The notes beneath the pieces are model-generated. The model was not told the origin of the DNA and did no database searches. It saw only the letters and a list, made by a program, of their open reading frames with translations. The position numbers were made by a program, and so were the translations under genes. Positions 6,099 through 43,359 of a stretch of 64,000 bases of DNA are shown here, one piece after another (positions within the stretch are counted from its first letter, which is position 1; every line of letters begins with the position of its first letter). This stretch comes from Erythrobacter sp. GTDB taxonomy: Bacteria; Pseudomonadota; Alphaproteobacteria; Sphingomonadales; Sphingomonadaceae. The DNA lies in the NCBI GenBank assembly GCA_013822125.1, contig PNJY01000001.1, positions 16,700 to 80,699 on the forward strand, in the 5' to 3' direction.

Positions 6099-6596
6099 TT
6101 GATAATGTTTACCGACGTGAATTTCGAGGCTACGCAGCGCTTTGTGCTGGCGATCGGAATCTTGTTGACCGTTGACGTGACTGGGCTCGGCGTCGGCAAC
6201 CCGAGGGGGGTTGTGTTTACAGTTGCACCGGCTGGCGAGGAGCTTGGATTTGAGAGGGCTGCCGCTAACCAAGGCAAAGACGTTATCGTTCTTACGTTCG
6301 AATTGGGGAAAGAGGAGGAAGGTCCCAAGAATATTGCCGTTTTCGAGGAGCGTAATGGTCAATTACGGGTTTGGCCAAGATGTGCGTTTTGCGAGACAGA
6401 TGACGGCCGACACTTCATTATCGATTATGACGATCGCATTGGCTTTGTTCTGTGGGATGAGAAGATCATGACGGTCAACAATTTGCCGCCGGGCTTTTGC
6501 CTAGAGAATGCTGAGCGCGGTTCTGCATTTCTGAAGGAATTTGCGACCGGCTACATCGGAACGATGCATCGTAACGGTTTTCAGTGCTCCCGATGA
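6099..6596 (+). CDS. hypothetical protein
   Basis: 165-aa ORF with a GGAGG RBS; lower GC; no motif recognised. Confidence 0.6.
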   Translation: MIMFTDVNFEATQRFVLAIGILLTVDVTGLGVGNPRGVVFTVAPAGEELGFERAAANQGKDVIVLTFELGKEEEGPKNIAVFEERNGQLRVWPRCAFCETDDGRHFIIDYDDRIGFVLWDEKIMTVNNLPPGFCLENAERGSAFLKEFATGYIGTMHRNGFQCSR

Positions 6597-15177: not shown

Positions 15178-15604
15178 TCAGCTTCTCTGGGGCACCGCAG
15201 GCCGCCAACCAGCTCATAATTGCCTGATAGGTGCCCCTTGCCGTTAGACATTGGATTGTAGCGATAAAGCTCTTGCATCTGTGACCGAAATGCGCAGGAT
15301 GAAGGGTGAATGAGAGGGGCGCGCCGTTGTTACTCATGAATTTGAGCAATTCTGTGTTCTGCGCGAAAGCGCTGCGCCGTAAGCCATTCGCAATCCGGTG
15401 TCGTGACCCTTTAGCTTCTGCCGCATTCGAGCGCTTTCGTGCCCAGCCGACTGTGCGAGTTCCAGTTCTGCATGGTTCACTCTCTGTTCTGGATAGAAAT
15501 ACGAGGCTTCTTCTTCCTGTAGAAGGTGGCTCCAAGCTGCTTCGATTCTTCGCGCAGCGCCGAGGTGCGGCAGCAATCCGCAATTGTTATTCGGAGGCGT
15601 GTCA

Positions 15605-16327
15605 ATGATGCGACGATCGCTCCTTCAGGTACTTGGAACTGGGTTACTTAGCCTTACGTTGCCGGCTTGCTCATCTGCCAAGGACACGGCTCCAGATTAC
15701 CGCTATCGTCTCACGGTCGAGGTCGAGACTCACGAGGGCCTAAGATCGGGGGCGAGCGTGATCGAAGTCCGGCAAAACATCGGCCGATCCGGCAGCAGCC
15801 CGCTCCATTCGCAAATATACCGCCATGCCAAGGGCGAAGCGGTGGCCGTCGATCTGCCGGGAGGCAAGACGCTGTTTGCGCTGTTGCGTTCCGACAGTGA
15901 CGTTGAATGGGCGGCTCAAGTCATGCATCTGCTCGCGCCCCAGATCCAAGGCGAGACCAGCCAAGATTCGTTTGACAATGTGCTGCTGATCAAGGGCAAG
16001 GTCGAAGTTCCCCGCACTTTCCCGCGCGTCGCGTGGATACCAACGCGCTCAGCCTACCCGATGATGGTGGTTTTCGGTGATCCCACCGATCCGACTAGCG
16101 TGACTAAAGTTGATCCAGATGATCTTGCGGCGACGTTTGGCGAGGGAGTGAAACTGAAGCGCGTTACTGTCGAGCTGACCGACGATCCTGTGAGCACCGG
16201 GATTGAGAAGCGGTTGGCCTGGTTGAGCAGCTATCCTGAACCGAGTTTGCGGCCGGGACACGACCTTAACGACTTTAGTTTGCCAGCCACACTTCGGCAC
16301 GGCGACTTTCGGCGAGGACAAAATTAA
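15605..16327 (+). CDS. lipoprotein of unknown function (candidate immunity protein)
   Basis: RR-containing signal peptide with lipobox-like LPAC; GGAGG RBS; TAATG overlap with the giant RTX gene. Confidence 0.75.
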   Translation: MMRRSLLQVLGTGLLSLTLPACSSAKDTAPDYRYRLTVEVETHEGLRSGASVIEVRQNIGRSGSSPLHSQIYRHAKGEAVAVDLPGGKTLFALLRSDSDVEWAAQVMHLLAPQIQGETSQDSFDNVLLIKGKVEVPRTFPRVAWIPTRSAYPMMVVFGDPTDPTSVTKVDPDDLAATFGEGVKLKRVTVELTDDPVSTGIEKRLAWLSSYPEPSLRPGHDLNDFSLPATLRHGDFRRGQN

Positions 16328-25300: not shown

Positions 25301-28300
25301 GTGCTGACGATGCAGTTACGCCGATTGCCCCCGTCAACATCGCTCCTGTGGTCAATAATGTCACTCTGGAGGGTAACGAGGACGCTACCCTGTTGATTGA
25401 TGCCGCGACATTGCTGGCAGCAGCAACCGATCCCAACGGCGACCAATTGCGGATTGCTAACGTCGGCGCGGCATTCAAAGGCAAGGTATGGATCGGTGTC
25501 GACGGTAATGTCCGCTTCCTGCCGGATATCGACTTCGCCGGCGAGGCCGGGTTTGATTTCGTCATCAGTGACGGCAATGGCGGGCTGACTACAGCACGAG
25601 CTCTGGTTTCTGTCCGCGGATCTAACGATGCCCCTCGTATCGCGGTTGAAGGCCGCACGTTCACGACCTTTGAGGATCGCCCGATCGATTGGTTCTTGCC
25701 GACCGGGGCTATTACCGATCCGGACGGTGATCCTTTGGTCTTTGAGGCAAGGCTGTCGTCCGGCGAGCCATTGCCCGATTGGCTGACATTTGACGGCAAT
25801 CGGTTTACCGGCACACCACCTTCGGACTTCAATGGTCTTCTGGCTATCGTCCTGACGGCTTCCGATGGAAACGTTACGACGTCATCCAATCTCACGATCG
25901 AAGTCTTGCCGATCAATGACGCCCCGCGTCAAGTGAGCGCGCTGGCCGATCAGATATTCCGGCCGGGCGAGGCCTTTGCCTTTACGCTGCCGACAAACAC
26001 GTTCCTCGATGTCGAGGGAGATCCGCTCTCGTTTGACATCGTTTCAAGCGACGGCAGTCTTCTACCCGATTGGCTCACGATCGACGGGCTGACAATCTCC
26101 GGCACAATCCCTGACGGTCAGGTCGCGCCAGTCAACCTCGCGTTGCGTGCCAGCGATGGCGCGTCGACGAGCATTGCCACCTTCGCAATCAACCCGGCAC
26201 CAAATGCCGCTCCGACGGTTGGTACCCAGCTCGGGCCGGTGTCAGGAACGGAGGATCAGGCGTTCAGCTTCACCTTGCCGGACAACGTCTTCGTCGATGC
26301 GGATCAGGACAGTCTTGCGATTACAGCTGTTCTTTCTGACGGCTCCCCATTGCCATCCTGGCTCAGCTTTGAGAACGCAACATTCTCGGGCAGTCCGCCG
26401 CAAGACTTCAATGGCGTCCTCGCCATCCGCCTGTCCGCAACCGACGGGCGCGCCTCAGTGTCTCAGAACTTCGTATTGACCATCAACCCGGTCAACGATG
26501 CGCCGGTGCTCGTGGTGCCGCTCGCCGACGCGGAAAGCCCAGAAGACACGGGCTTCTCGGTCTCGATCCCCACGGAAACCTTCGGCGATGTCGATGGTGA
26601 CGCCTTGACGTTCAGCGCGACGCTTGCGGGCGGGGCACCGCTGTTCGATTGGCTGAGGCTCGAGGGAAGCACGATCGTCGGTACCCCGCCGCAGGACTTC
26701 AACGGTGACATCGACATTGTCGTTTTGGCCAGCGATGGCTTGCTGTCGGCTTCCGATACCTTCCGCCTCACTATCTCGTCAACCAACGATGCCCCGGTGG
26801 TGCTGGTGCCGCTCCCCGACTTCACCGTCGCCGAAGATCAGCCCATCATGCTTGATCGTCTCACCGCAGGCTTCGGGGATGACGACGGTGATGCGCTAAC
26901 CTTCACGCTGACAGGTGCCAATGGTGCGGCGCTGCCCACTTGGCTGAGCCTTGCAAATGGCCAGCTTGTCGGGACTCCGCCAGCAAACCTCAATGGCGTA
27001 TTCGACCTTGAATTGAGGGCGAGCGATGGCGCGCAGAGCGTCGTTGATGCTTTCCGGCTCACGTTGTCGCCCGTCAACGACGCGCCGGTACTGGCTCAGC
27101 CCCTCACTGATCAGACCGCGACCGGCATTGGCCCGGTTTCGATCACCATTCCGGCAGGTGCTTTCACCGATCCTGATGGTGACGCGCTAACTTACACCGC
27201 GCGTCTGGCCGATGGTTCAGAGCTGCCGCAATGGCTAGCGTTCAACGCAGCGAGCCGGACCTTCACCGGTACGGCGCCCAATGCCAATGCCGCGCTCAAT
27301 GTCCGTCTGACGGCGAGCGACGGTGCCTTGAGCGCATCGGACGATTTCCTGCTGACCGTGACGGCGCAGGCCGAAAACGGGGGCAGCAGCACCGGCTTCC
27401 GGCAGGTAGGCCTCAACAGCTGGTTCAACCCTTCCTGGGGCGGCGGCTACAATGTCACCTTTGAATACCAGGTGCAGCCCGACGCGATCGTCGATGGCCG
27501 CCTGAAGGCCTGGGACATTCTTGCGAGTTACACGGGTCCGGGCACCATCACCAATGGCTGGGTCAGCGGTTTTCCAGGAACGACGACCTTCCAGATTGTC
27601 CCGGGCGGAGCACGATTCACCAACACCGGCCAGAGCTATCAGCCAAGTCTCGGCGAAGGCACGCGTTTCCAGGTCTCGGTGCAGGTCGATGGTGCCGCAT
27701 ACAACCCGGCGCATTTCGGGCTGTCGATCTTCGACCGCGACCCGGCGTTCAACCTGGCGGACGATAGCGACACCCTGCTCACCGTCGCCCCGACCAGCGT
27801 ATGGGCTGGCGGGCTCAGTCAGAACCTCACGCTGCGCAACACCGGCGCGACAGCGATCGATGGCTGGCAGGTTGTGCTTGATGTGCCGACGGGCGTGACG
27901 TTGAACATTACCAGCGTCTGGGGGGCTACTGCCACCACGCTCACCAGCGGCGACATCATGTTCCGTGCTCTCTCCAGCAATGAGAGCGTAGCGACAGGTG
28001 CGGAAACCAGCTTCGGCTTCAACGCGAGCTACTCCGGCGTCAGCACCTTGCCGCTCAGCCGCGGAATGTTCAGCTTCACCGATGGCGACGCCCGCCAGTT
28101 CGATGCAGTGATCGCCTCGCTTACCGGCACGGGCCTCACCAGCAATTGGCGTTACGGCACCGCTGCGGTCGATGCGCTCACCGCGCCGACGACGGCCGAC
28201 ACCCGCCTGTTTGGCGGCGTGGGGGCGGACACGATCAATGGCAATGCCGGGGCCGACTGGATCGCGGGCGGATCGGGCGACGATGTGCTCTATGGCAATG

Positions 28301-31002: not shown

Positions 31003-31995
31003 TCAGGGAAGGGCGGGGAACTTTCGCCGACGGCTGTGAACGAGTTCCCGAAGAATTTCAGGCTGAAGTACTTCGACCGAGGTGCCCCAAGCGTAAAGAT
31101 GCCAGCACATTTCAAGCAGGCCGGAGGCGCGAAACCTTACTAGCAGAGATCCGTCACGTTCCTCCTCGACAACCTGTGTCGGGTGAAAAACAAAACGGCG
31201 TGCATGCGCGGCAGCCTCCGGAGAAAAGCGCCAGACCACATCGCCATATTCAGCGGCATTCTCGTATGAACCGAAACCCCGTTTGGCGTGCTCGTGAATA
31301 TCGAAACCGGCATCGAACTCGAAGCTCTCCGGCAGCACCTCAGCCTCGGTGATCTCCTCGACCCGGTAGTGCTGGAGCGGGGCAGACGCTGGCTTTGCAG
31401 TGTCCCTTGCGACAAGATAGCGCCGCACTCCCAGGAGCAGACCATGCGGGGCTACGATACGGTCGACGGGCTTCGCCTGACCCCGCTTGCGATAAGGGAA
31501 GCGCAACAAGAAAGGCCCCTTGAGCGCCTCATAGATAGCCGTGTCCACTTCGCGAATGGCGGCTGGTTTCGGGCCCGGCCGAGCAGCATGGCCGAGGGCT
31601 TCCAGGAGAGCTTCCTCGTCGACCGCCAGCCTTGTGCCTTTCTCCGGCGGAACCAGAGCTCTGACCTTCTGCGCCAGGCTGCGCGTCAGCGCCGCTTCCT
31701 GCAGCATGCCTGCCTGCTCAAGCTGGGCGATGCCGGTCGAAAGCGCGGCAAGCTCTTCGGATGAGGGCGACAGCAGGGTAGCCACATGCCGCGCGGGGAT
31801 GTGCCAGCGCTTCCTGCGATCCTCGCCCTCACTGGTTTCCGTTTGAGGAAAGGCGGCCTCGAGCGCCTCGGTCATGCGCTGCGCCGTTCGATAGACGCAG
31901 CCGAATTCCTCGATGATCTCCTCGAGGGTAACGCCGCTGCGGCGCGTGGCCATCATCGCGAGCTTCAAGAGCTCCTGTGCCTTGGCAAAGGACAT
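31003..31995 (-). CDS. WYL-domain transcriptional regulator (HTH-WYL-WCX)
   Basis: N-terminal wHTH (TLEEIIEEFGCVYRTAQR), PHGLLLG.RRYLVA..., YRVEEI WYL core, C-terminal WGTSVEVLQP. Confidence 0.92.
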   Translation of the reverse strand: MSFAKAQELLKLAMMATRRSGVTLEEIIEEFGCVYRTAQRMTEALEAAFPQTETSEGEDRRKRWHIPARHVATLLSPSSEELAALSTGIAQLEQAGMLQEAALTRSLAQKVRALVPPEKGTRLAVDEEALLEALGHAARPGPKPAAIREVDTAIYEALKGPFLLRFPYRKRGQAKPVDRIVAPHGLLLGVRRYLVARDTAKPASAPLQHYRVEEITEAEVLPESFEFDAGFDIHEHAKRGFGSYENAAEYGDVVWRFSPEAAAHARRFVFHPTQVVEEERDGSLLVRFRASGLLEMCWHLYAWGTSVEVLQPEILRELVHSRRRKFPALP

Positions 31996-32058: not shown

Positions 32059-35000
32059 ATGCGATTTGTCGAAGGAAAACTCCGCTACTCGGCCTCGGAC
32101 CTGATGCGCTTCAAGGGGTGCCGGCACGCCACCACACTTGACCTGCGCCTCCTGGAGATCGGAGATATCCGCCCGAAGGACGACAGCGCTGAGGCAGAGC
32201 TGCTCCAGCGCCAGGGAGACGAACACGAACTCGCCTTCCTTGAAAGCCTGCGCGCAGAAGGGCGCGTGGTCACCGAGATCCCCAAGGACGGCATTACGCT
32301 CGAAGAGGCTGTAGCCTTGACCCTGGAAGCCATGGCCCGAGGCGCCGACATCATCTTCCAGGGGGCGCTGCTGGACGGAGAATGGGGCGGCTACACGGAC
32401 TTTCTCGAACGGGTCGAGCGCGCCTCCAGTCTCGGCGGCTGGTCCTACGAGGTCGTCGACACCAAGCTCAAGCGCAAGCCCGATCCCAAGCACGTCCTTC
32501 AGCTGTGTCTCTACAGCGATCTGCTTGCGAAGGTGCAGGGCTCTGCGCCCGAAAGCGCCCACCTTCAGCTGGGTGACGGAAGCCGATATTCGGTGCGCCT
32601 TGCCGATGTATCCGCCTATGCACGGCATGCCCGCGCGATGCTTGAAGGCTTTGTGACCGAAAGGCCTGCAACCCGAGCCGAGCCCGTTTCCTCATGTGGT
32701 CTGTGCCGGTGGAGCGACCATTGCCATGCACAATGGGAGCAAGAAGACAGTCTTGCACTGGTTGCAGGCATAACGCGCAGCCAGCGCCAGAAGCTCGAGG
32801 CGGCGGGCATTACGACGATGACGGCACTGGCTGGGAGAACCGAGCGGGTGCCGAAGATGGCCGCTGAAACCCAACGCAAGCTGGTAGCACAAGCGCTTTT
32901 GCAGTCCGCCCGTCGGAATGGCGGTGCCCCGAGCTTCGAATTGCGGGTGCCTGAGCCGGGCAAAGGCTTCGGCCTGCTGCCAGAACCGGCGGAAGGCGAC
33001 GTATTCTACGATATCGAGGGCGATCCCTATTTTCCCGGCGGTCTCGAATATCTCCACGGTGTCTGGTTCATGGAGGATGGCCAATGGCAGTTCCAAGCCT
33101 TCTGGGCCCATGATCGCGAGGCGGAAGGCAAGGCCATGAGCGACCTGCTTGGCTTTCTAGTCGAGCGCATGCGGCGATATCCCAAGGCCCATATCTACCA
33201 CTACGCCAACTACGAAATCGCCGCCTTGCGCCGCCTGACCGCTGCACACCGAACCGGCGAGGCAGCCATGGACCAGCTTCAGCGAGAGCGGCGCTTCGTG
33301 GACCTTTTCAAGGTGGTCGGCGGCGGTCTCATCGCTTCGGAGAAGGGCTATTCGATCAAGGATCTCGAAGCCTTCTACATGGAGAAGCGGGCTGCCGATG
33401 TCGCAACCGCCGGAGCCAGCGTCGTATTCTACGAGGAATGGCGTCAGACCGGCGAACAGCGGCTGCTCGATGAAATCCATGACTACAACCGGACCGACTG
33501 TGTTTCGACGCAGCTCCTCATGGATTGGCTGGTCAAGGATGTGCGTCCGACTGGAATGCCCTGGCCCGTGCTCGGCGATGTTCCCGCTGCCGGCCCGCTT
33601 TCGAACGTCGCAGCGGAAGACGAAGAACTCGATCTCTTGCGGCAGCGCCTTGAACCGGTGCGCGCACGCCTCGGGGAGCGCGTCGCCACCTTGCTGCTCG
33701 ATCTCAGCCAGTTTCACAAGCGCGAGGACAAGCCTGCCTATTGGGCGATCTTCGACCGGCTTGCGCAGGAAAGCGAGGAGCTGCTTGACGACCTGGAATG
33801 CATACAGGGGCTCGTGGCAATCACCGGACCTGTACAGGTCACCGCCAAATCCTCAGAGCGGACTTACCGCTTCCCCGAACAGGAAACCAAGCTTCGCGCG
33901 GGCAAGACGCCATGCATCAAGCCTGCAGCCATGCCCGAAGAGGTGCAGCTGCAATCCATCAACCACGACGAGCGAACTCTCATCTTGCGTCGCTCGCACG
34001 TCAAGGGCCCGCTCCCTGACAGGCTCGACTTGCTTCCGCCAAGGCCGCTGCAGAACAAGATCCTCCGGGAGTCGCTGATGGCTGTGATCGAAGAGATCAT
34101 TGCCGCTTCCGGCCAGGTCACCGCGATCGAGCAGCTCCTGACCCGCGCCATCCCGGCGTTTGTCGATAGTGCGCGTCCCGGCAGCATTGTTCGGCAAGAT
34201 GGGGAGCTCGTCGAGGAGACGAGCCGCGCCATTGCCGCCATGGATTGCTCGACGCTTGGCATCCAGGGGCCGCCCGGTACGGGCAAGACCTTTGTCAGTG
34301 CCGCGTCGATCAACGATCTGGTGCAGTCCGGGAAGCGGGTCGCTGTCGCATCGAACAGCCACAAGGCGATCGGGAATCTGCTCAAGGCCGTGGCTGAACG
34401 AGCACAAGATGGTGGGAAGGCGATCTCGATCGTCCAGAAGGTATCCGATGGCGACGACGCCGACGATCATCCCATGATCATCGCCGTGACCGACAACAAT
34501 GCGCCGGAAATCAGCCGCGCGGATGTCGTCGGATCCACCGCGTGGCATTTCGCCCGCTACGATACGCCTGCCTTCGACTACCTCTTCGTCGACGAGGCTG
34601 GCCAGGTTTCACTCGCCAACATCCTGGCGATGGGGCGATGTGCGCGAAACATCGTCCTCGTGGGCGATCCGATGCAACTTCCCCAACCGCTGCAGGGCAG
34701 CCATCCGGGCGAGAGCGGGCTCTCCTGCCTCGAATACCTCATCGATGGGCACCGGGTCATTCCAGCCGAGCGCGGCATCTTCCTCCCCATCAGCCGCCGC
34801 ATGCATCCGAATATCTGCCGCTTCATTTCCCAGGCTGTTTATGAGGGGCGACTGGACAGCGATGCAGCCGCGGCCGCGCAGTCTCTCGTGTCATCAGCGG
34901 GCGACAACCTCGTTGGTGCGCAGTTCAGACCTGTCGAGCACACGGGGCGATCACAGGTCGCCCCTGAAGAAATTGCAGCAATCCGCGCGACAATCGAGGC

Positions 35001-35394
35001 CCTGGTCGGCTCGGTCTATTGCGACCGGAACGGCAACGAGCGCGTCATTGCTCACGGCGACATTCTTGTGGTTGCTCCCTACAATGCGCAGGTCAATGCG
35101 CTCAGGGCCGCCTTGCCGCTCGAGGTGCCCGTCGGAACCGTCGACAAGTTCCAGGGACAGGAGGCGCCGATCTGCCTTGTGTCGATGACGACGTCGAGCG
35201 GCGAGGAATTGCCTCGCGACATTGCGTTCTTGTTCTCGCTCAACCGGATCAATGTGGCGGTTTCTCGGGCGCAGGCGGCGGCGATTGTGTTCGCAAGCCC
35301 ATCATTACTCGAAACACCGTGCCGGACGGTAGAGGACATGGCGCTGGTGAATGTCCTTTGCCTTCTTCGCGAGCTTTCATCGGGCGATCCCTGA
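32059..35394 (+). CDS. TM0106-family RecB-like nuclease / RNase H-like / superfamily 1 helicase fusion
   Basis: PD-(D/E)xK-like TDFL..YEVVDTK; FYDIEGDP/IYHY RNase H-like region; GPPGTGKT, VDEAGQ, TVDKFQGQEA, NRINVAVSRA. Confidence 0.92.
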   Translation: MRFVEGKLRYSASDLMRFKGCRHATTLDLRLLEIGDIRPKDDSAEAELLQRQGDEHELAFLESLRAEGRVVTEIPKDGITLEEAVALTLEAMARGADIIFQGALLDGEWGGYTDFLERVERASSLGGWSYEVVDTKLKRKPDPKHVLQLCLYSDLLAKVQGSAPESAHLQLGDGSRYSVRLADVSAYARHARAMLEGFVTERPATRAEPVSSCGLCRWSDHCHAQWEQEDSLALVAGITRSQRQKLEAAGITTMTALAGRTERVPKMAAETQRKLVAQALLQSARRNGGAPSFELRVPEPGKGFGLLPEPAEGDVFYDIEGDPYFPGGLEYLHGVWFMEDGQWQFQAFWAHDREAEGKAMSDLLGFLVERMRRYPKAHIYHYANYEIAALRRLTAAHRTGEAAMDQLQRERRFVDLFKVVGGGLIASEKGYSIKDLEAFYMEKRAADVATAGASVVFYEEWRQTGEQRLLDEIHDYNRTDCVSTQLLMDWLVKDVRPTGMPWPVLGDVPAAGPLSNVAAEDEELDLLRQRLEPVRARLGERVATLLLDLSQFHKREDKPAYWAIFDRLAQESEELLDDLECIQGLVAITGPVQVTAKSSERTYRFPEQETKLRAGKTPCIKPAAMPEEVQLQSINHDERTLILRRSHVKGPLPDRLDLLPPRPLQNKILRESLMAVIEEIIAASGQVTAIEQLLTRAIPAFVDSARPGSIVRQDGELVEETSRAIAAMDCSTLGIQGPPGTGKTFVSAASINDLVQSGKRVAVASNSHKAIGNLLKAVAERAQDGGKAISIVQKVSDGDDADDHPMIIAVTDNNAPEISRADVVGSTAWHFARYDTPAFDYLFVDEAGQVSLANILAMGRCARNIVLVGDPMQLPQPLQGSHPGESGLSCLEYLIDGHRVIPAERGIFLPISRRMHPNICRFISQAVYEGRLDSDAAAAAQSLVSSAGDNLVGAQFRPVEHTGRSQVAPEEIAAIRATIEALVGSVYCDRNGNERVIAHGDILVVAPYNAQVNALRAALPLEVPVGTVDKFQGQEAPICLVSMTTSSGEELPRDIAFLFSLNRINVAVSRAQAAAIVFASPSLLETPCRTVEDMALVNVLCLLRELSSGDP

Positions 35395-35600
35395 GCTGGC
35401 GCCATGCTTCCGCCGTGGTGCCGGAAGATTGATCTTCTTAAGGCACGGCGAAGCGCATCCTTCCATCAGCCTGGTCGAGCCGCTTCTGAAGCACTTGCGT
35501 GTTCCAGGATGCCCCATCTCTCCCGCGCCGATGGTCATAGTTCCGGAAATGAGAAGAGGAGGTGAAAAGATTGGCTTGAAGCCAAGGAAAGGAAAAAATT

Positions 35601-36080
35601 ATGGAGTTCAGATATCTAAACTACCGCCACAAGGAATTCAGCATGCCGGAGTTCTGGCCGGACATTCATGTCGAGCCTTGTACGACGATCCACCGGGAGG
35701 ACGAAGTTCTACGCTTCTTCGAGCGGTTCAATAACCTGCTTGCCCAGCTGACCGGATACACTCCTGCCTACAGGCCCCTGTTCAAGCAAATTGGCGTTCT
35801 CGAGGGTGTGACGCATATTCGCTATTTCCGCGCGGATACGGGCAAGCAGTACGTGGCGAACTCCTGCGCGATTGACGACGTCATGGATGCTGACGAGATT
35901 TCCAACTGCGCATTCATGGTCCCCCAATTCCACGTGCATCGCCCCCGCTCGATCCGGCCGATCCGGATCAAGGAAGGTGAAGCTCTACATGTCGCTGTCG
36001 ACGCGGATTTTGAATACTGGGGATGGTATCCGAATGCCTATGACCCGGTAATGCTTCGCTACACAGCCGACATCATCTGA
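35601..36080 (+). CDS. hypothetical protein
   Basis: 159-aa ORF with an AGGAAAGGA RBS-like sequence; no motif recognised. Confidence 0.65.
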   Translation: MEFRYLNYRHKEFSMPEFWPDIHVEPCTTIHREDEVLRFFERFNNLLAQLTGYTPAYRPLFKQIGVLEGVTHIRYFRADTGKQYVANSCAIDDVMDADEISNCAFMVPQFHVHRPRSIRPIRIKEGEALHVAVDADFEYWGWYPNAYDPVMLRYTADII

Positions 36081-36102
36081 ATCGTGCTTGCTGCCAGCGT
36101 CC

Positions 36103-36453
36103 CTAGATGACCACGAAGGTGCCATTCAGGGCGCTGGCAGCTACCCTTACGGCCTCATGCAGCGCGATCGTGTGCTTTTGCCGGGGCATTTCTTGCCCGT
36201 TTAGCTGCCGCCTCGCGGTCTGATCACCGATTTCCACGGTCACGCTGCTCGCACCATTGGCGATGGCATCTGTAAGGCAGGACAACACTGCCAAATAGTA
36301 GGCAACGTGATTGCTGCATCTCGGGATGTTCCAGTTCCTTCTTTTGCCGTTGACCGTCACCTCGATCTTCGGCCGAAGGTCACCGTTCTTGAAGACTGAG
36401 ACTTGAACGGCATAATGCATCGTTGGTCCGGTGGCAGGCGAACTTGAAGTCAC
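36103..36453 (-). CDS. small RNase HI-like (RVT_3-type) protein, probably degenerate
   Basis: SNHVAYYLAVLSCL..A...GASSVTVEIGDQ...QLNG parallels TNN.AEY.AL..GL...G...V.V.GDS...Q..G; GTG start at 36453 with AGGGA RBS (ATG 36420 is an alternative). Confidence 0.55.
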   Translation of the reverse strand: MTSSSPATGPTMHYAVQVSVFKNGDLRPKIEVTVNGKRRNWNIPRCSNHVAYYLAVLSCLTDAIANGASSVTVEIGDQTARRQLNGQEMPRQKHTIALHEAVRVAASALNGTFVVI

Positions 36454-36543
36454 TGGTTTTTCCCTTTGGCGAGTACAGGCAAATAACTGATAGGTAGAGA
36501 TAATTGTTGGCAGCGGGTTTGAGACCCTGCGGCCAGCACCTAC

Positions 36544-36945
36544 GTGGTCGCGCTTATGCGAACGCGTTTCGAGGCAGAACCAGAAGCGCCATGGGATGGG
36601 CCAAATGCTCTCGGTCCAAGCAGCATGACAGGTTTTGACGTGTTGGACTGCGATACTCCTTTCATGGAAGAAGGAGCATCGCAGATGGCTTACTGGGACC
36701 TGGGAATGAAGCATATCGTCGACGTTGACGGGCAGCTGCTCGCGATCGACGCGGATGTCATCGATACGACCCGCCTGCTTGAAAGGGCCAATCGGCCAGC
36801 GGACAGCCACCTCGCCATGGTACGGGCCGGCGAGCGCATCCTGCTCCAGCCCCGGCAGTTGATCCGGCTTCCCGTCGATGAAGTTCTCTTCTTTGAAACG
36901 AACGAAAATTCAGTGCATTATGGCGAGCGCCGTCTGGCGGCGTAG
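36544..36945 (+). CDS. hypothetical protein
   Basis: ORF ends just before the DUF2235 operon; start uncertain. Confidence 0.45.
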   Translation: MVALMRTRFEAEPEAPWDGPNALGPSSMTGFDVLDCDTPFMEEGASQMAYWDLGMKHIVDVDGQLLAIDADVIDTTRLLERANRPADSHLAMVRAGERILLQPRQLIRLPVDEVLFFETNENSVHYGERRLAA

Positions 36946-36983
36946 GGCGACGCAAACGCATGGTCTGAGGAAGAGGAGGTGGT

Positions 36984-38423
36984 GTGATGCAGACTGAGGG
37001 TGCTTCAGGGAAAAACATCATCATCTTCTCGGACGGCACCGGGCAGTATGGCGGTGTGCTGCCGGATCAGCGATTGTCCAACATCTACAAGATGTACCGT
37101 GCCATGCGCCCCGGCACGCAGACCAGCTTCGATCCCGCTCATCAGGTTGCCTACTACGATCCCGGCCTTGGGTCAGGCGAACTGAGTGGCAGGGTGCGGA
37201 ACATTCTCGCAGCTGCATTCGGGACGGGGATCAGCGAGAACATCATCGATTGCTACGAAGCCATCTTGCGTCACTATGAGGATGGCGACCGGATCTTCCT
37301 GTTCGGCTTCAGCCGGGGCGCCTACACCGCCCGGAGCGTTGCCAACGTGATGAATCTGTGCGGGGTTCCGCGCCATGACAAAGGCGGAAAGCCGCTTCCG
37401 ACCGGCGGCGTCGCCCTGCGCAAGATCGCGGAAGAAGCGGTCTACCGCGTCTATGAGCATGGCTCTGGCAAGGATCGCGCAAGGTATGAACCGGAGCGCG
37501 AGGAACTGGCACGGCGCTTCAGGCTGAAGTACGGAAGCGAAGGACAGGGTGCCAAGGGCGAGTCCCAAGGCAATGTCGCCCCGACGTTTATCGGCGTGTT
37601 CGACACGGTCGCAGCTCTCGGAACGGTGATCGTCAAGAGAGTGCTCTTCGTCCTGGCGGTGCTGAGCGGAGTGCTCGGACTTGCCGCGTGGATGAGCGAC
37701 CTTCTTCTCACCTGGAAAATCCTCGCTTCGATTCCGGCAATGTTCTTTGCCGGGAGCTGGGGCTGGGCGGCGAAGAAGCAGTTCAAATTCATCGGGAACC
37801 CGCCGCAAGGCGGAAAGGTGAGCTGGCACTTCGCGGCCTGGAACCTCAAGCATTACGACCGCTTTCTCGACAGCAGCGTGGGCTACGCCAGGCACGCGCT
37901 CTCCATCGATGAAAACCGAAAGCGCTTCCCCCGGGTAGGCTGGGCTAACGGCGGCGATGCCCTCAAGCAGGATCGTGGGCCACTTGAGTGGCTGAAGCAG
38001 GAGTGGTTCGCGGGCAATCACTCCGACATCGGTGGGAGCTATCCGGAAGACGAATCCCGCCTTTCCGATATCGCCTTGCGGTGGATGATCGATGAACTGA
38101 AATCGATCCCGAACCCTCCACTAATCGATGAGCGCTTTGTGCAAACCTTTCCCGACCCGCTGGGGATCCAGCATGACGAGGTCAGGGCCAGCTTGGAGCT
38201 CTGGCCGCGCTTTTGGCCGAAATGGGCAAGGTTTGGTTGGTCGGCCGAGACCAGAAAGATCAACCCAGAAGCGGCCCTACATGAGAGCGTCCTTGCCCGC
38301 TTTGCTGCAGCGTCCGTACCCCAATATGACCAGCGGGCTCCCTATCGGCCGGAAAACCTTCGTGGGCACCTCAGCACACAGCGCTATTTCTCGGCGTGCG
38401 AAGCAAGCCACGAAGAAATTTGA
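36984..38423 (+). CDS. DUF2235 (Tle1-like alpha/beta hydrolase, putative phospholipase) with internal TM hairpin
   Basis: KNIIIFSDGT, YYDPGLG, FGFSRGAYTARS, GVFDTV, RHALSIDE.R, WFAGNHSDIGG; hydrophobic insert RVLFVLAVLSGVLGLAAW... Confidence 0.9.
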   Translation: MMQTEGASGKNIIIFSDGTGQYGGVLPDQRLSNIYKMYRAMRPGTQTSFDPAHQVAYYDPGLGSGELSGRVRNILAAAFGTGISENIIDCYEAILRHYEDGDRIFLFGFSRGAYTARSVANVMNLCGVPRHDKGGKPLPTGGVALRKIAEEAVYRVYEHGSGKDRARYEPEREELARRFRLKYGSEGQGAKGESQGNVAPTFIGVFDTVAALGTVIVKRVLFVLAVLSGVLGLAAWMSDLLLTWKILASIPAMFFAGSWGWAAKKQFKFIGNPPQGGKVSWHFAAWNLKHYDRFLDSSVGYARHALSIDENRKRFPRVGWANGGDALKQDRGPLEWLKQEWFAGNHSDIGGSYPEDESRLSDIALRWMIDELKSIPNPPLIDERFVQTFPDPLGIQHDEVRASLELWPRFWPKWARFGWSAETRKINPEAALHESVLARFAAASVPQYDQRAPYRPENLRGHLSTQRYFSACEASHEEI

Positions 38424-38481
38424 CATACTTCCCCAACGACTCGGTGCAGGATTGGGCGAGGCTACAAGACGGAGCGGAGCG

Positions 38482-39513
38482 ATGAGGTTGCTTTTCGTAA
38501 GCCTGGGGCTCAGCCTTGCCATGACTGCGGCCCCTGTGGCGGCGCAGCGGTTCGTGTGCAGCGGGGCAACAAACTCGCCCTATCCGCAGTTCGTCGCAAC
38601 GTATCACGATCATCAACGTGTCGCACCATCCGGACGGGGGCTGTCTGATAAGTTCACCGCCTTCTCGACCGTGTTCGACGATGCGGACGACGACGATGGC
38701 GATGGGCAGCCCGATCTGCGCCTTAATCCCGAATACGTGGTCTACGAGCTGCGCGGTCTCGCACCGGGCCGCAGTGGCAATTACGACGAGCCTCCCGTCT
38801 CCATCGACCGGCCCAACAAGTGGTACGCCTCTCCGGGCCTCGTCCCCTTGGTCGAGGCAATACAGGGCGCCACCAATCGCCGCATCGATGACAGCTACAG
38901 CGGCGCAGCGACAGTCTGGAACCGCGGGCATCTGGCGATGAGCGACCACGCGCAGCGCATCAGCCCCGAGGCTGGCTGCAACACCCACGTGTTCTGGAAT
39001 GCCTCGCCCCAGGCAGCAGACCTCAATCAGGGTCCGTGGCTGCATCTCGAGAACTACACCGCCGCCGCCTCGAACAAGTATCGCAGCATCTGGGTGATCG
39101 CAGGGCCGATCTTTGACCCCGCCACGCCCACGCTCACGATCGGCGATCCGGGAGAGCTGAAGGTCGAGATCCCGGACGCCTTCTTCAAGATCCTCATCCA
39201 CGAAAGTCCCTCGGGCATCGATACGCTGGCCTTCATCTTCGAGCAGCCCAACGCGCTCGGCGCCGACGGCAAGCCTGTGCCGACACAGGCATGGGTCAAC
39301 TGCAAGCGGGCACGTCAGGTGGGGCATGTCTATGATCATCGCCCCAACCTCGTGGCAATCGCGGACATCGAGCGGCGCACTGGGCTGAAGTTTTTCCCGG
39401 ATCGTCAGGATCGACAAGCGCTCCTGAGCAAGCGGGCGCGGGAGGTCTGGCCCGTCGAGACCCGTTTCTGGGATAGCAGTGCGCCCTGCGGCGGACAGCG
39501 CGGTCATCCCTAG
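38482..39513 (+). CDS. secreted DNA/RNA non-specific endonuclease
   Basis: Signal peptide; NRGHL (DRGH-type) motif, NASPQ...LNQGPW..LE, VEIPDAFFKIL, DIERRTGLKFF. Confidence 0.85.
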   Translation: MRLLFVSLGLSLAMTAAPVAAQRFVCSGATNSPYPQFVATYHDHQRVAPSGRGLSDKFTAFSTVFDDADDDDGDGQPDLRLNPEYVVYELRGLAPGRSGNYDEPPVSIDRPNKWYASPGLVPLVEAIQGATNRRIDDSYSGAATVWNRGHLAMSDHAQRISPEAGCNTHVFWNASPQAADLNQGPWLHLENYTAAASNKYRSIWVIAGPIFDPATPTLTIGDPGELKVEIPDAFFKILIHESPSGIDTLAFIFEQPNALGADGKPVPTQAWVNCKRARQVGHVYDHRPNLVAIADIERRTGLKFFPDRQDRQALLSKRAREVWPVETRFWDSSAPCGGQRGHP

Positions 39514-39527
39514 GGGGAGGGGAGGGC

Positions 39528-40655
39528 ATGCCCAAGAACATTGTCATCCTGCTCGACGGCACGTCGAACGAGATCGAAGAGGACCGCACCAATATCCTGC
39601 GGCTCTACGGCGTACTTGAGAAAAACAGTGATCAACTGGTCTACTATGATCCGGGTGTCGGAACCTTCGGTGCCGGCGGATCTTGGTCACGGATTTGGCG
39701 CAAGGCGAACGAGATCTGGGGGCTCGCCACGGGCTGGGGCCTCGATGACAATGTGAAGCAGGCCTATCGATTCCTTGTCGAGAACTATGACAACGGAAAG
39801 AAGACCGAAGGCGAGCAGCGTGACGCTATCTACATTTTCGGTTTCAGTCGCGGGGCCTATTCGGCCCGGGTGCTTGCCGGCTTCATCAATGCGGTTGGCC
39901 TCATCGAGCCGCGGAATCTCAATCTGCTCGAATATGCCTACCGGGCATACAAATCGATTGGAGAAAAACAGGGTGACAATGCGTTTGCTGAGGTTCGCCT
40001 TTACGAACGCATCCTCAGGCCCGATCGACCTCCCATCAGAATGCTCGGTCTCTTCGATACGGTTGCGTCGGTTATCGAAGCCGGGCGCTTTGGTCCACGC
40101 CTCACCTCGCATGCCTTTACGAAGAAGAACCCCAGCGTAGAAAGTGTCTACCATGCAGTCGCCCTCGACGAGCGCCGCACCATGTTCCGGCCCCTGCTCT
40201 GGCCTGCTGGTGAAGAATATCGCGGTAATCCAGTTAGGCGAGGGTCCGCGCCCAAGCAGGATGTCCATGAAGTCTGGTTCGCCGGCGGACATGGTGACGT
40301 AGGCGGAGGGTACCCCGAGGCCGACAGTGCGCTTTGCAAGGTCCCGCTCGTCTGGATGATTGAGGGAGCCCGACGGTGCGGGCTTAAGTTCCGCCAGCAA
40401 AGCATCAACGCGCTTGTACTCGGCAAGCGCAAGGACACAGATTATGTCGCGCCTGATCCCCTTGGGAAATCCCACAACACGATGACATGGGGATGGGCGA
40501 TCCTCGAGTTTCTCCCGCGTCGTAAGCCGGAGTTCTCATCGAGACCCGCCATATTCGGCTTCTCCATTCCATTCTTCGAGCGTCGGCATGTGCCGACGGA
40601 TGCCGTCTTGCATCAGTCGGTTCAGGCCCGGCGACAGGCAAATCTGAGCTCCTGA
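39528..40655 (+). CDS. DUF2235 (Tle1-like alpha/beta hydrolase)
   Basis: KNIVILLDGT, YYDPGVGT, FGFSRGAYSAR, GLFDTV, HAVALDERR, WFAGGHGDVGG. Confidence 0.92.
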   Translation: MPKNIVILLDGTSNEIEEDRTNILRLYGVLEKNSDQLVYYDPGVGTFGAGGSWSRIWRKANEIWGLATGWGLDDNVKQAYRFLVENYDNGKKTEGEQRDAIYIFGFSRGAYSARVLAGFINAVGLIEPRNLNLLEYAYRAYKSIGEKQGDNAFAEVRLYERILRPDRPPIRMLGLFDTVASVIEAGRFGPRLTSHAFTKKNPSVESVYHAVALDERRTMFRPLLWPAGEEYRGNPVRRGSAPKQDVHEVWFAGGHGDVGGGYPEADSALCKVPLVWMIEGARRCGLKFRQQSINALVLGKRKDTDYVAPDPLGKSHNTMTWGWAILEFLPRRKPEFSSRPAIFGFSIPFFERRHVPTDAVLHQSVQARRQANLSS

Positions 40656-40946: not shown

Positions 40947-41546
40947 ATGGCACGACGCACTTTCTTCTCGTTTCACTATCAACCCGATGTCTGGAGGGCA
41001 TGGAACGTCCGCAACAGCTGGGTCGTGCAGAACGAAAAGGAGAGCGAGGGCTTTTTCGACGGCAGTGTGTTCGAGTCGAAGAAGCGTGAGAGCGACGATG
41101 CCCTCAAGCGATTCCTGACCGACGGTCTGAAGAATACCTCGGTGACCTGCGTGCTCACCGGATCGGCAACCGCAAGCCGACGCTGGGTGCGTTATGAGAT
41201 CGCACGCAGTGTCCTGAAGGGCAATGGTCTGCTGACAGTCGACATCCATGGGGTGAAAGACGAGGATGGTAAGACGTCGGCCAAAGGATCAGATCCTCTC
41301 GCATCGATGGGATTGTATCTTTTGGACGAAAAGATCTATCTTGCGGAGAATAATGCTGGAAAATGGGTGAAGTATTCGGATTATTCGCTTGCCATCCCGG
41401 CAGGCCAAATCTGGCTTCCCAAGCCGACGTCCAATGCTGTCGTCCCGCTTTCGAAGCATTGCTTACGCTATGATTACAGCGCCGAGGATGGCCGCAAGAA
41501 TCTTGGAAGCTGGATTGAGTCTGCGGCCAAGGCGGCTGGGAGGTAG
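40947..41546 (+). CDS. ThsB-like TIR domain protein (DUF1863/MTH538 type)
   Basis: RRTFFSFHYQPDVWR, TSVTCVLTG..T..RRWVRYEI (catalytic Glu), GNGLLTVDIH. Confidence 0.9.
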   Translation: MARRTFFSFHYQPDVWRAWNVRNSWVVQNEKESEGFFDGSVFESKKRESDDALKRFLTDGLKNTSVTCVLTGSATASRRWVRYEIARSVLKGNGLLTVDIHGVKDEDGKTSAKGSDPLASMGLYLLDEKIYLAENNAGKWVKYSDYSLAIPAGQIWLPKPTSNAVVPLSKHCLRYDYSAEDGRKNLGSWIESAAKAAGR

Positions 41547-41551
41547 CGTTC

Positions 41552-42709
41552 GTGGCCCTCTATGAGCTCCTCATCCTCGGCGATCCGGAACCCTGGCAAG
41601 TAACCGCTCTGACGGATCGCTTCGCCGAAGCGGCACAGGCTTTCGAGTTGGATGTCCCGCATAAACTTGCATGGAGAACGGGGGCAGACGCCGATGAGCG
41701 GGAGCGGAAGGCTGCGACCGTGGCGGCCTTCTTCGGAGGGGATCCCGAAGCAGATCGCGAACTGGTGGCCGAATTGCAGGCGGACGAGATCCCGATAATA
41801 CCCGTCGTCGCGGCCGGTGAGCCATTCGCCGCACAAGTCCCGAACAACCTCCATGCAACCAACGGATACTTCATTCCGATCAACGACACCTCTCTCGAGG
41901 GGCTGGCAGCTGCACTGCTGGAGTGCGTCGGCTTGCTTCATGAGCAAAGGCGCGTGTTCATTAGCTATCGGCGAACCGAAGCTCGTGAAGTCGCCGTACA
42001 ACTTCATGATGTTCTCAGCGCACGCAACTTCGATGTCTTTCTCGACACCCATGACATCCGACCCGGTGCGCCCTTCCAGGAGATGTTATGGCACCGACTG
42101 GTCGATTGCGATCTTGTCATCGTCCTCGACACACCAGACTATTTCGGCAGCAAGTGGACCACCCAGGAACTGGGCCGCGCTTTGTCAAAGGGGATCCACA
42201 TCCTGCGGCTGACCTGGCCCGGGCACTCACCATCGAGGCAGTTGACCCTCGCAGACGGGCTTTCTCTCGACCATGCTGACTTCGATCAGGACAAGCGCCT
42301 GAAAGAGCGAGTGGTCGATGCAATCATCGATCGGGCCGAGCGGTTGAGGAGCCGAAGCATAGCAACCCGGCACCTTGCAATTGCCGGAAAGCTCAAGACC
42401 GAAGTCGAGCGGATCGGAGGGCAGTTCGAAGGGATCGGGGCCCATCGCCTGATGTCACTTACTCTGCCATCGGGCCGGCGGGTCTGGGCTTACCCCGTCG
42501 TGGGCATACCCACCGCAGACATGCTCAACGATGTACATCGGAAAGCCGAAAAAGCCCCTGCAAAAGGGTTCCCGCTATTAATCTATGATCACGTCGGTAT
42601 CAGAGATGCCTGGCTTGAACATCTCCAATGGCTCGACACGTATATCAGCGATGTTCGCGCCCTGAAGGTGATGGACGCAGCATGGGAGCTTGTGGCTTGG
42701 GACAGTTGA
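41552..42709 (+). CDS. TIR_2 domain protein with extra N- and C-terminal regions
   Basis: RVFISYRR, VFLD..DIRPG..FQ, LVIVLDTPDYFGSKW..QEL (catalytic Glu); GTG start 5 bp after the previous stop. Confidence 0.88.
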   Translation: MALYELLILGDPEPWQVTALTDRFAEAAQAFELDVPHKLAWRTGADADERERKAATVAAFFGGDPEADRELVAELQADEIPIIPVVAAGEPFAAQVPNNLHATNGYFIPINDTSLEGLAAALLECVGLLHEQRRVFISYRRTEAREVAVQLHDVLSARNFDVFLDTHDIRPGAPFQEMLWHRLVDCDLVIVLDTPDYFGSKWTTQELGRALSKGIHILRLTWPGHSPSRQLTLADGLSLDHADFDQDKRLKERVVDAIIDRAERLRSRSIATRHLAIAGKLKTEVERIGGQFEGIGAHRLMSLTLPSGRRVWAYPVVGIPTADMLNDVHRKAEKAPAKGFPLLIYDHVGIRDAWLEHLQWLDTYISDVRALKVMDAAWELVAWDS

Positions 42710-43359
42710 TTGGCTCAGGGGCGATCTTCCTCTCCGCCGGCGTCCCCGACCCCGGTGCTAACCACTTCCTGGGCGAGGGCGATAGCGCCGCAATTTCTGC
42801 AGCGGTTTCTGGCCTGTTGTACGTCACGCTAGGCCGCCGGCGCCTTGTCTGGGGTGGGCATCCTGCCATTACCCCCATGATCTGGTCTGTCGCAGAGGCC
42901 ATGAATGTGGACTATGGTGAGTGGGTGACGCTGTACCAGACCCTTCTGTTTGAAGATGAATTCCCCGAAGAGACGGCACGCTTCGATAATGTCGTTTTCG
43001 TCGAAGCGGTCGGGACGGATCGAGAGCAGAGCCTCGAGAAGATGCGCAAGCGGATGCTAGGCGAAACACGGTTCGAGGCAGCTGTTTTCATCGGCGGAAT
43101 GGCTGGGATCATGAATGAGTACGAAATGATCCAGGCGTCAGGAGCTTCTGTCAAAATGATCCCGGTGGCCTCCACAGGAGGTGCGGCCGCGATCCTGCAT
43201 CAACAGCTCGGCGCCGATCCTATGCTTGTTGATGAGCTCGACTATGTTGCATTGTTTCATAAGGCTCTAGCCATCGATCCCAACGAGCGGCGTTACCGTG
43301 TTCCAAGCGAGCAGCCGGAAACGCAAGCTGAGCGGATCTCAATTCCAACACGGAAGTAA
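42706..43359 (+). CDS. standalone SLOG-superfamily protein
   Basis: AIFLSAGVP, LVWGGHPAITP, SLEKMRKRM, AAVFIGGMAGI..EYE, PVASTGGAA; TTGA overlap with the TIR gene (ATG 42682 is an alternative). Confidence 0.8.
   Translation: MIGSGAIFLSAGVPDPGANHFLGEGDSAAISAAVSGLLYVTLGRRRLVWGGHPAITPMIWSVAEAMNVDYGEWVTLYQTLLFEDEFPEETARFDNVVFVEAVGTDREQSLEKMRKRMLGETRFEAAVFIGGMAGIMNEYEMIQASGASVKMIPVASTGGAAAILHQQLGADPMLVDELDYVALFHKALAIDPNERRYRVPSEQPETQAERISIPTRK

Follow-up and report, generated by a model that had tools for sequence, protein, structure and literature searches.

A 64,000-nucleotide stretch of Erythrobacter sp. DNA (contig PNJY01000001.1; hereafter the window, meaning the whole stretch) carries at positions 36984-40655 a gene for a predicted exported endonuclease, NUC, between two genes for Tle1-like serine hydrolases of the DUF2235 family, DUF1 and DUF2. 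Open reading frame (ORF) listing and translation place all three on the plus strand in the order DUF1-NUC-DUF2, with intergenic gaps of 58 bp (DUF1/NUC) and 14 bp (NUC/DUF2); they are the only plus-strand genes of this segment, and no adjacent gene for a periplasmic immunity lipoprotein was found in it. Judged by sequence comparison, the trio joins two commoner two-gene cassettes in a single instance and is not a conserved three-gene system. We favor, with somewhat less than even confidence, the reading that it combines two alternative forms of a single mobile defense-island effector cassette of the abortive-infection type. An earlier description made from the letters of the window and its ORF translations (the original prediction) had pointed to two hydrolases with GFSRG motifs flanking a nuclease; translation and Pfam searches confirmed all three ORFs, their motifs, and their coordinates, and the short gaps that it gave are exact.

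The NUC family (179 matches, mostly alphaproteobacterial) was used as the anchor for comparison: 76 loci from genomes, metagenomes, and assemblies were searched with the window proteins by tblastn, and approximately 35 related loci were compared. The order DUF1-NUC-DUF2 was found solely in contigs identical to the window, and the idea of a conserved three-gene operon was rejected for this reason. Three-gene synteny elsewhere, which the original prediction had named as its own check, did not emerge: relatives carry either DUF1-NUC or NUC-DUF2. The first form, DUF1-NUC without DUF2, occurs in approximately 14 loci (Erythrobacter, Porphyrobacter, Tabrizicola, and metagenomes), in which NUC is 85-89% identical and a block of WYL regulator and helicase genes (described below) lies upstream wherever the flank is long enough. 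The second form, NUC-DUF2 without DUF1, occurs in five or more settings unrelated to one another: the WYL-helicase island also seen in the window (L005, L034, and L035 in our locus numbering); an integrative and conjugative element (ICE), directly ahead of traG/trb and beside an nSTAND NTPase gene (L006); a Sphingomonas plasmid, beside an insertion sequence and with a frameshifted DUF2 (L001); a Sphingobium/TARA island that also carries Gabija and an S1/P1 nuclease gene (L015, L038, and L039); and one other context (L007 and L008). A third form, NUC-DUF2-DUF1', was seen in one metagenome contig (L037), where DUF1' is 46% identical to DUF1 and likewise has a hairpin.

Nucleotide alignments locate the joints between these cassettes. 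In blastn comparisons with the first form, homology covers 36624-39512 of the window and ends exactly at the NUC stop codon. With second-form loci of the same island, homology covers 36624-36905, where an 86-aa ORF and the promoter region lie (both described below), skips DUF1, resumes at approximately 38540 within NUC, and breaks off at approximately 40530-40580, near the 3' end of DUF2. DUF1 is an indel between the upstream block 36624-36905 and NUC. In L005 (8466-10004) and L035, its slot is filled by a gene for a 512-aa RmuC protein with an N-terminal transmembrane (TM) helix, which overlaps the NUC start by 4 bp. NUC thus forms the constant core: the upstream slot holds DUF1, RmuC, or nothing, the downstream slot DUF2 or nothing, and the window is the sole case with DUF2235 genes in both flanking slots.

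Every NUC at least 67% identical to that of the window and with readable flanks has a DUF2235 neighbor, and for this reason we consider the pairwise linkage real; since it recurs in unrelated contexts, with two subfamilies that are 30-34% identical to each other, the adjacency goes beyond chance. This bears on another explanation, possible if rather doubtful, in which the three genes are autonomous neighbors: NUC would be a periplasmic barrier by which mobile elements keep out incoming DNA (transformation, rival elements), and the DUF2235 genes would be independent hotspot cargo. Each family is indeed often found without the other, what adjoins NUC changes from locus to locus (DUF1, RmuC, nothing, Lamassu-like SIR2 and SMC genes, Thoeris), and NUC homologs also adjoin genes for secreted S1/P1 nucleases in Caulobacter and Sphingobium. 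However, autonomy does not readily account for a NUC-DUF2 gap that never exceeds a few tens of bases in a pair that moves between unrelated contexts, for the gain by NUC of two DUF2235 subfamilies, one per side, plus the additional arrangement in L037, or for the unbroken presence of a DUF2235 neighbor above the 67% mark.

Some of these loci have features of their own. On the Sphingomonas changnyeongensis plasmid (L001, 11049-12187), the DUF2 homolog that follows NUC is split by a frameshift at approximately codon 71 and is unannotated in the record. In Erythrobacter sp. T5W1-R (L010, 11902-16636), DUF1-NUC is followed by a Lamassu-like gene set (SIR2_2 protein, 196-aa ORF, LmuB-like SMC ATPase). 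The genes for S1/P1-family nucleases that adjoin NUC homologs lie on the same strand in Caulobacter (L002, 11221-12228) and divergently in Sphingobium (L015, 9042-9854), which suggests a recurring theme of exported nucleases.

NUC (38482..39513, plus strand) encodes a predicted Sec-exported, non-specific DNA/RNA endonuclease of 343 aa that matches PF01223 (Endonuclease_NS) with an E value of 8.6e-25 and 88 bits against a gathering cut-off of 23. The original prediction had called it a signal-peptide nuclease, and the sequence is in keeping with this: its N-terminus, MRLLFVSLGLSLAMTAAPVAA followed by Q, is hydrophobic (Kyte-Doolittle peak 1.94), and a heuristic places a signal peptide at residues 1-21 (38482..38544, plus strand) with predicted cleavage after VAA. 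The N-termini of NUC homologs are hydrophobic and variable, with AxA at the end, and the start that yields 343 aa is supported by the lengths of more than 100 homologs (338-345 aa). In a phmmer search NUC matched EndoG, ExoG, Serratia nuclease, and NucA, and its NRGH and LNQ..LE motifs line up with theirs. N147-R-G-H150, N182, and E190 are invariant in 33 homologs and align with the EndoG core, and four cysteines are invariant across the same set. NUC has in common with Serratia NucA, Anabaena NucA, and EndoG the aligned (D/N)RGH histidine, metal-binding asparagine, and glutamate of the beta-beta-alpha-Me type; the conserved cysteines, together with the predicted signal peptide, would liken it to Serratia nuclease as well. 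It differs from them in an extra N-terminal region of approximately 100 aa with an acidic DDADDDDGDG stretch ahead of the Pfam-matched core, in its linkage to DUF2235 genes and mobile elements, and in the absence of a NuiA-type gene; none is present with NUC. As far as is known, Serratia-type nucleases gain activity only once oxidized outside the cytoplasm. NUC is probably a Sec-exported, disulfide-stabilized enzyme, and activity that arises only after export and oxidation would explain why it has no inhibitor gene.

Both hydrolases, by their profile matches, are members of the Tle1-like superfamily. DUF1 (36984..38423, plus strand) encodes 479 aa, or 478 aa from an alternative ATG at 36987 that is annotated in an identical contig, and matches PF09994 (T6SS_Tle1-like_cat) with an E value of 4.8e-66 and 223 bits; DUF2 (39528..40655, plus strand) encodes 375 aa and matches the same model with an E value of 1.6e-75 and 255 bits, the gathering cut-off being 27. 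The GFSRG motif occupies residues 108-112 of DUF1 and 105-109 of DUF2. In DUF1 numbering, S110, D207 (in FDTV), and H346 (in WFxGxHxDxGG) are invariant in all 33 aligned sequences of the two families, which have this Ser/Asp/His set in common; on the basis of conservation, not of superposition, they are the putative catalytic triad, and their invariance makes both hydrolases look catalytically intact. Searched by sequence, neither DUF1 nor DUF2 matched a PDB chain, and the structural link to Tle1 comes from a fold search with the AlphaFold2 model of DUF1 (mean pLDDT 85.5, pTM 0.87). The best PDB matches in Foldseek were the Tle1 entries 4O5P (E value 5.9e-11) and 6SJL (E value 9e-7), with a probability of 1.0 each; the top matches (E values from 6e-11 to 8e-6) also include 6SKI and TleB 9J3F, and thioesterases come next. 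The Tle1 matches have low TM-scores, 0.29-0.36, and identities of 15-18%.

DUF1 differs from DUF2 by two inserts, a helical one of approximately 50 aa ahead of FDTV and a hydrophobic hairpin of approximately 55 aa just past it. The predicted TM hairpin, residues 215-266 (37626..37781, plus strand), interrupts the catalytic domain shortly past the FDTV aspartate; the hairpin that the original prediction had assigned to the first hydrolase is borne out by a Kyte-Doolittle peak of 2.29 and by two long helices in the AlphaFold2 model (215-237 and 242-266). In the 33-sequence alignment the hairpin insert, variable in sequence, runs throughout the DUF1 family and is not present in the DUF2 family. 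Basic residues border it at either end (KR ahead, KKxxK behind), and by the positive-inside rule the catalytic domain of DUF1 would lie at the cytoplasmic face of the inner membrane. DUF2 begins with its catalytic domain and is free of hydrophobic segments, and hydropathy revealed no signal peptide in either hydrolase. Both hydrolases are therefore predicted to face the cytoplasm, with NUC as the sole exported product. Of the original prediction's "envelope-level" module, the nuclease, by its predicted export, remains, and the hydrolases do not fit, having no signal peptides and, in DUF1, a catalytic domain predicted to be cytoplasmic.

The same topology makes lipid scavenging, offered in the original prediction as an alternative role, unlikely, since both hydrolases face the cytoplasm (predicted) and have no signal peptides. 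Outer membrane phospholipase A acts in colicin release, and NucE/NucD release Serratia nuclease. By analogy, the hydrolases might permeabilize the envelope and let NUC out for DNA feeding or biofilm remodeling, an explanation that we hold to be decidedly improbable. The predicted export of NUC, the secreted S1/P1 nucleases beside NUC homologs, and the aquatic source of the sequences (marine and drinking-water metagenomes) would suit such a unit, but export signals are missing from both hydrolases, the genes lie on ICEs, plasmids, and defense islands rather than in nutrient-uptake loci, and there are no adjacent genes for nucleoside or phosphate transport.

To our knowledge, Tle1-like (DUF2235) lipases are known solely as type VI secretion system (T6SS) weapons that are fired into rivals. 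The window hydrolases resemble Tle1 (P. aeruginosa PA3290, 4O5P; enteroaggregative E. coli, 6SJL) in the PF09994 domain, the GxSxG serine motif, and the conserved Asp and His. However, they are much smaller, they lack a VgrG-binding or membrane-anchoring module as well as T6SS genes and a Tli immunity gene, and they are predicted to meet the producer's own cytoplasmic membrane leaflet, whereas Tle1 acts on the rival's periplasm. The Pfam scan covered approximately 50 window ORFs, mostly of at least 150 aa, and found no VgrG, PAAR, Hcp, or Tli domain among them, although a small PAAR gene is not strictly excluded; nor were T6SS genes seen among the called genes of the approximately 35 related NUC and DUF2235 loci. 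The original prediction's statement that no vgrG, PAAR, or Tli-like gene is nearby extends to both sets. A T6SS Tle1-Tli system was rejected on context and architecture, as neither T6SS linkage nor an immunity lipoprotein was found. A Tle1-type toxin cassette for use between bacteria, with a T6SS encoded elsewhere, or a conjugative type IV secretion system, as its delivery route, we consider very improbable. Membership in the Tle1-like superfamily by Pfam and fold, and one NUC-DUF2 pair straight upstream of traG/trb, speak for it; against these stand the absence of VgrG, PAAR, Hcp, adaptor, and Tli-like lipoprotein genes from the window and the related loci, the start of DUF1 and DUF2 at the catalytic domain with no delivery domain, the internal membrane hairpin of DUF1, which is ill-suited to secretion, and the lack of an adjacent immunity gene, which a periplasm-acting lipase would need.

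Beyond the trio, both DUF2235 subfamilies are large, with more than 6000 and more than 5000 matches among the 8000 candidates scored per search, and greatly outnumber NUC. Conservation is good across Sphingomonadales, Rhizobiales, and Rhodobacterales, and members are frequent in plasmid records (142 with the DUF2 query, 124 with DUF1) and on alphaproteobacterial ICEs. Defense genes are their usual surroundings. The DUF2 query had no match in 50,697 phage genomes, and a role in phage counter-defense was dropped on that account.

Members of the DUF1 family recur with nucleotide-signaling genes. In Novosphingobium PP1Y, a DUF2235 gene whose product is 75% identical to DUF1 stands with SLATT-like and SMODS/AGS_C genes, separated by a 22-bp gap, and SMODS/AGS_C-SLATT_4-DUF2235 operons with gaps of 3-30 bp occur on at least four plasmids of the Roseobacter group. 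A hairpin-bearing DUF2235 gene is the third gene after SMODS/AGS_C-SLATT_4 in L091 (4107-7446), L092 (4107-7446), and L086 (4997-8392), on plasmids of Sulfitobacter, Roseovarius, and Pseudosulfitobacter, and in these three loci a CD-NTase gene adjoins the DUF1 homologs. The likeness to SMODS-SLATT is that of a third gene appended to such a pair, as in these plasmids and Novosphingobium; the pair itself is missing from the window, and most SMODS-SLATT pairs, for example on enterobacterial plasmids, have no DUF2235 gene. Other neighbors of the DUF1 family are Hachiman, RES-Xre pairs, and, in Phyllobacterium, a TIR gene; two contexts are without defense genes.

The DUF2 family shows a comparable range. 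A homolog stands straight after a type III CBASS operon on a Sphingopyxis ICE, others follow CBASS on Agrobacterium and Rhizobium plasmids, beside Hachiman and DarTG, and others lie near CBASS in Phaeobacter and Nitrobacter; one context is plainly metabolic. Hachiman, DarTG, AbiE, RES-Xre, and Gabija are further defense neighbors of DUF2235 homologs. DUF2 homologs also have partners of other kinds. Directly 5' of one lies a gene for a ResIII/DEAD helicase of approximately 1100 aa in L083 (2672-8161) and L084 (3689-8131), with 36% identity between Methylocystis and Roseovarius. A conserved uncharacterized protein of approximately 600-625 aa follows the DUF2 homolog in L077 (6001-9129), L085 (7001-10109), and L097 (5001-8094); its Sphingopyxis and Agrobacterium versions are 33% identical, Phaeobacter has it too, the pair adjoins a CBASS operon each time, and the C-terminus of the large helicase has a DDxxGExADxV...HxKxS-like motif in common with it. 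In a third arrangement, on plasmids of Methylocystis, Rhizobium, and Sphingobium, the DUF2 homolog is followed by genes for an AAA ATPase (approximately 415-465 aa) and a hypothetical protein of approximately 280 aa (L083, 8259-10492; L098, 6320-8544; L100, 6219-8353). Effector domains of defense systems typically pair in this modular way with varied partners on mobile elements and in defense islands, which is circumstantial evidence for such a role here.

CapV is a patatin-like phospholipase effector of CBASS. The original prediction had drawn on it as an analogy, which gains weight from the tight operons in which DUF1-family genes follow SMODS (CD-NTase) and SLATT genes. Like CapV, the hydrolases would be cytoplasmic lipase-type effectors without an immunity protein, and DUF1-family genes hold an effector-like place after the CD-NTase gene. 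The folds, however, are unrelated (CapV is patatin, the window hydrolases are Tle1-like alpha/beta hydrolases), and no CD-NTase (SMODS) gene was found among the scanned window ORFs. By comparison with the SMODS operons, activation by a nucleotide suggests itself for the DUF1 family; the window has no cyclase.

Under our favored reading, the effector cassette would have as its constant part a Sec-exported, non-specific, probably disulfide-dependent NUC, and as its variable partners proteins on the cytoplasmic side of the inner membrane: the hairpin-anchored DUF1, the soluble DUF2, or, in some relatives, membrane-anchored RmuC. The hydrolases would be latent, phospholipase-type suicide effectors: infection or invading DNA would set them off, and they would then turn on the inner membrane of their own cell from within, in the manner of CapV. 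They would be kept inactive rather than neutralized, which would make a Tli-type immunity protein unnecessary, and NUC would degrade nucleic acid in the periplasm, or nucleic acid that arrives there upon membrane failure. The original prediction of an envelope-level module that degrades incoming DNA and damages the membrane thus survives in part: the defense-island setting and the absence of a T6SS were upheld, and the conservation of the triplet and the envelope exposure of the hydrolases were not.

Several observations weigh against this reading. Phospholipase activity would be an extrapolation from distant Tle1 relatives, with thioesterases as the next structural neighbors, and the topology was predicted from hydropathy together with the positive-inside rule. 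The cassette contains no recognizable sensor or trigger. NUC homologs that are 66% identical or less have no DUF2235 neighbor, most DUF2235 genes of either subfamily are without NUC, and, because both partners occur apart, any coupling between them is facultative. Homologs also lie in non-defense contexts (L081, L093, and L096). PADLOC-DB v2 and NCBIfam (2026) have no model that matches DUF1, NUC, DUF2, or their homologs, and we found no paper that links DUF2235 to phage defense, only T6SS papers (the 2015 SMODS/SLATT paper by Burroughs was not covered).

A bolder two-part proposal, to which we would give only a small chance, is that the cassette works by compartment-gated suicide and, jointly, that Tle1-like DUF2235 hydrolases are an unrecognized, widespread class of defense effectors. 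NUC would be stored in the periplasm, active yet harmless, until infection leads the hydrolases to breach the inner membrane; NUC would then flood in and destroy phage and host DNA, physical separation taking the place of an immunity protein. The wider class would pair modularly with NUC, SMODS-SLATT, CBASS, the large helicases, the ATPase pair, and the 600-aa protein.

The genes on either side of the trio are of the defense type, as the original prediction had said: WYL and nuclease-helicase genes upstream, TIR, TIR, and SLOG genes downstream, the latter not recognized there as Thoeris-like. Approximately 290 bp beyond DUF2, a ThsB-like TIR gene is annotated from 40947 (40947-41546, plus strand; matched by the PADLOC ThsB1 and PDC-M50B models only), followed on the same strand by a TIR gene (41552-42709; NCBIfam Thoeris type III ThcB4, 459 bits against a cut-off of 220) and a SLOG gene (42682-43359, or from an alternative start at 42628; NCBIfam ThcA, 231 bits against a cut-off of 110). 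Type III Thoeris, which bioRxiv 10.64898/2025.12.03.692087 credits to van den Berg et al. 2024, consists of several TIR proteins and a SLOG effector only, with uncharacterized signaling (bioRxiv 10.64898/2025.12.03.692087). The genes at 40947-43359 reach the ThcB4 and ThcA cut-offs and include only two TIR genes, whereas the name ThcB4 would point to a larger number of TIR proteins in the reference system; by these profile matches, they are a type III Thoeris-like set, a separate cassette beside the trio. No TIR-TIR-SLOG set adjoins the cassette among NUC- or DUF2235-anchored relatives. Since it is absent from all related islands, the Thoeris-like set is a recent insertion, and since the two cassettes are found apart in all relatives, the trio is not part of type III Thoeris. 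The accessible portion of the supplements to the TIR-systems preprint makes no mention of DUF2235, PF09994, or PF01223.

These comparisons make it unlikely, and a link is not required, that the adjoining Thoeris-like genes form a six-gene unit with the trio in which the hydrolases would serve as signal-activated effectors or accessories. Such a unit would be in keeping with the recurrence of both subfamilies beside nucleotide signaling (SMODS-SLATT, CBASS, the Phyllobacterium TIR gene), with the common direction of the six genes, among which no terminator-like site occurs before 43872, and, weakly, with a contig from a possible RNA run that crosses the DUF2 stop codon into the intergenic region. 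But the TIR/SLOG set adjoins the cassette in none of the approximately 35 NUC-anchored loci, and among DUF1-NUC loci only L042 has a TIR-like match, a weak one that lies approximately 4.5 kb from NUC on the opposite strand. DUF1 proteins 88-90% identical to that of the window occur in loci without adjoining TIR/SLOG genes, the homology shared by NUC-DUF2 loci ends within the 3' end of DUF2, the TIR start lies approximately 290 bp beyond DUF2, and type III Thoeris as described has no components besides TIRs and a SLOG effector (bioRxiv 10.64898/2025.12.03.692087).

A sigma-70-like promoter match, TTGAAA-17-CATTAT (36893..36921, plus strand), recognized by consensus only, lies approximately 60 bp 5' of DUF1, and a ribosome-binding stretch, GAGGAAGAGGAGG, comes after it and ahead of DUF1. 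The promoter-like site lies at the end of the block 36624-36905, which is also present in loci without DUF1. Searches of the plus strand found no terminator-like site before 43872. The trio is probably transcribed from a single promoter 5' of DUF1. The possible RNA run, from public reads, yielded scattered contigs that are too weak to define a transcript. The GC content is unremarkable.

Upstream, profile matches identify a divergent WYL-WCX regulator gene (31003-31995, minus strand) and a gene for an 1111-aa RecB-like nuclease/RNase_H_2/SF1 helicase (32059-35394, plus strand), on which PADLOC matches are confined to the C-terminus (MkoA-like). Just 5' of the cassette lies an 86-aa ORF (36685..36945, plus strand) that is annotated in an identical contig and has no Pfam match; tblastn found it with 82-94% amino acid identity in 15 of the 15 WYL-helicase-linked loci and in none of the remaining NUC loci. 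By this distribution, the 86-aa ORF is part of the WYL/helicase block. The block of WYL-WCX regulator, 1111-aa helicase, and 86-aa ORF is kept, at 82-94% amino acid identity, in approximately 15 loci, including L005, L009-L014, L034, L035, and L042, and may be an uncatalogued defense system or a hotspot backbone. A minus-strand "RNaseH-like" ORF at 36103-36810 was set aside, its conserved signal being better accounted for by the plus-strand 86-aa ORF. Between the helicase gene and the 86-aa ORF, blastn delimits a window-specific insertion of 1257 bp (35367..36623), across whose site L010, L014, L042, L034, L005, and L035 are contiguous; it contains a 159-aa ORF without a family match and, on the minus strand, an ORF whose RNase H-like match is below threshold.

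Shield, reported in Pseudomonas only, has a membrane-bound RmuC nuclease, ShdA, and a WYL regulator nearby (PMC10270631). In L005 and L035, a TM-anchored, ShdA-like RmuC gene directly 5' of NUC and a nearby WYL regulator gene recall this system, and this RmuC gene, translationally coupled to NUC through the 4-bp overlap, is a Shield-like gene outside Pseudomonas. The window, in contrast, has no RmuC gene, and none of Shield's ShdB to ShdE is a nuclease of the NUC type or a DUF2235 protein.

Farther to the left, and unrelated to the trio, the window holds genes for a type I secretion system (C39-ABC transporter, HlyD) and, after them, one for a 4811-aa RTX/cadherin/He_PIG/CBM_2 adhesin (together 11486-30762). 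Two large minus-strand ORFs (1966-5025, 1019 aa; 6581-8386, 601 aa) are nearly blank in Pfam, with a weak HTH_31 match only. Farther to the right of the Thoeris-like set are ordinary regulators and metabolic genes.

As far as sequence can tell, the locus is a variant of lipase and nuclease effectors for which there is no curated model. It draws attention to two large DUF2235 subfamilies that are T6SS-independent, have no immunity genes, are predicted to face the producer's cytoplasm, and lie on plasmids, ICEs, and defense islands, often beside CBASS, SMODS, or TIR signaling. If the genes are unlinked, the locus is still a clear case of cassette shuffling at a defense hotspot. Should the hydrolases prove to be suicide effectors, abortive infection would have taken over a fold known from weapons, and defense catalogues would gain a new effector class. 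The recurrent pairing with an exported nuclease raises the further idea that compartmentalization, and no antitoxin, may keep a lethal enzyme safe.

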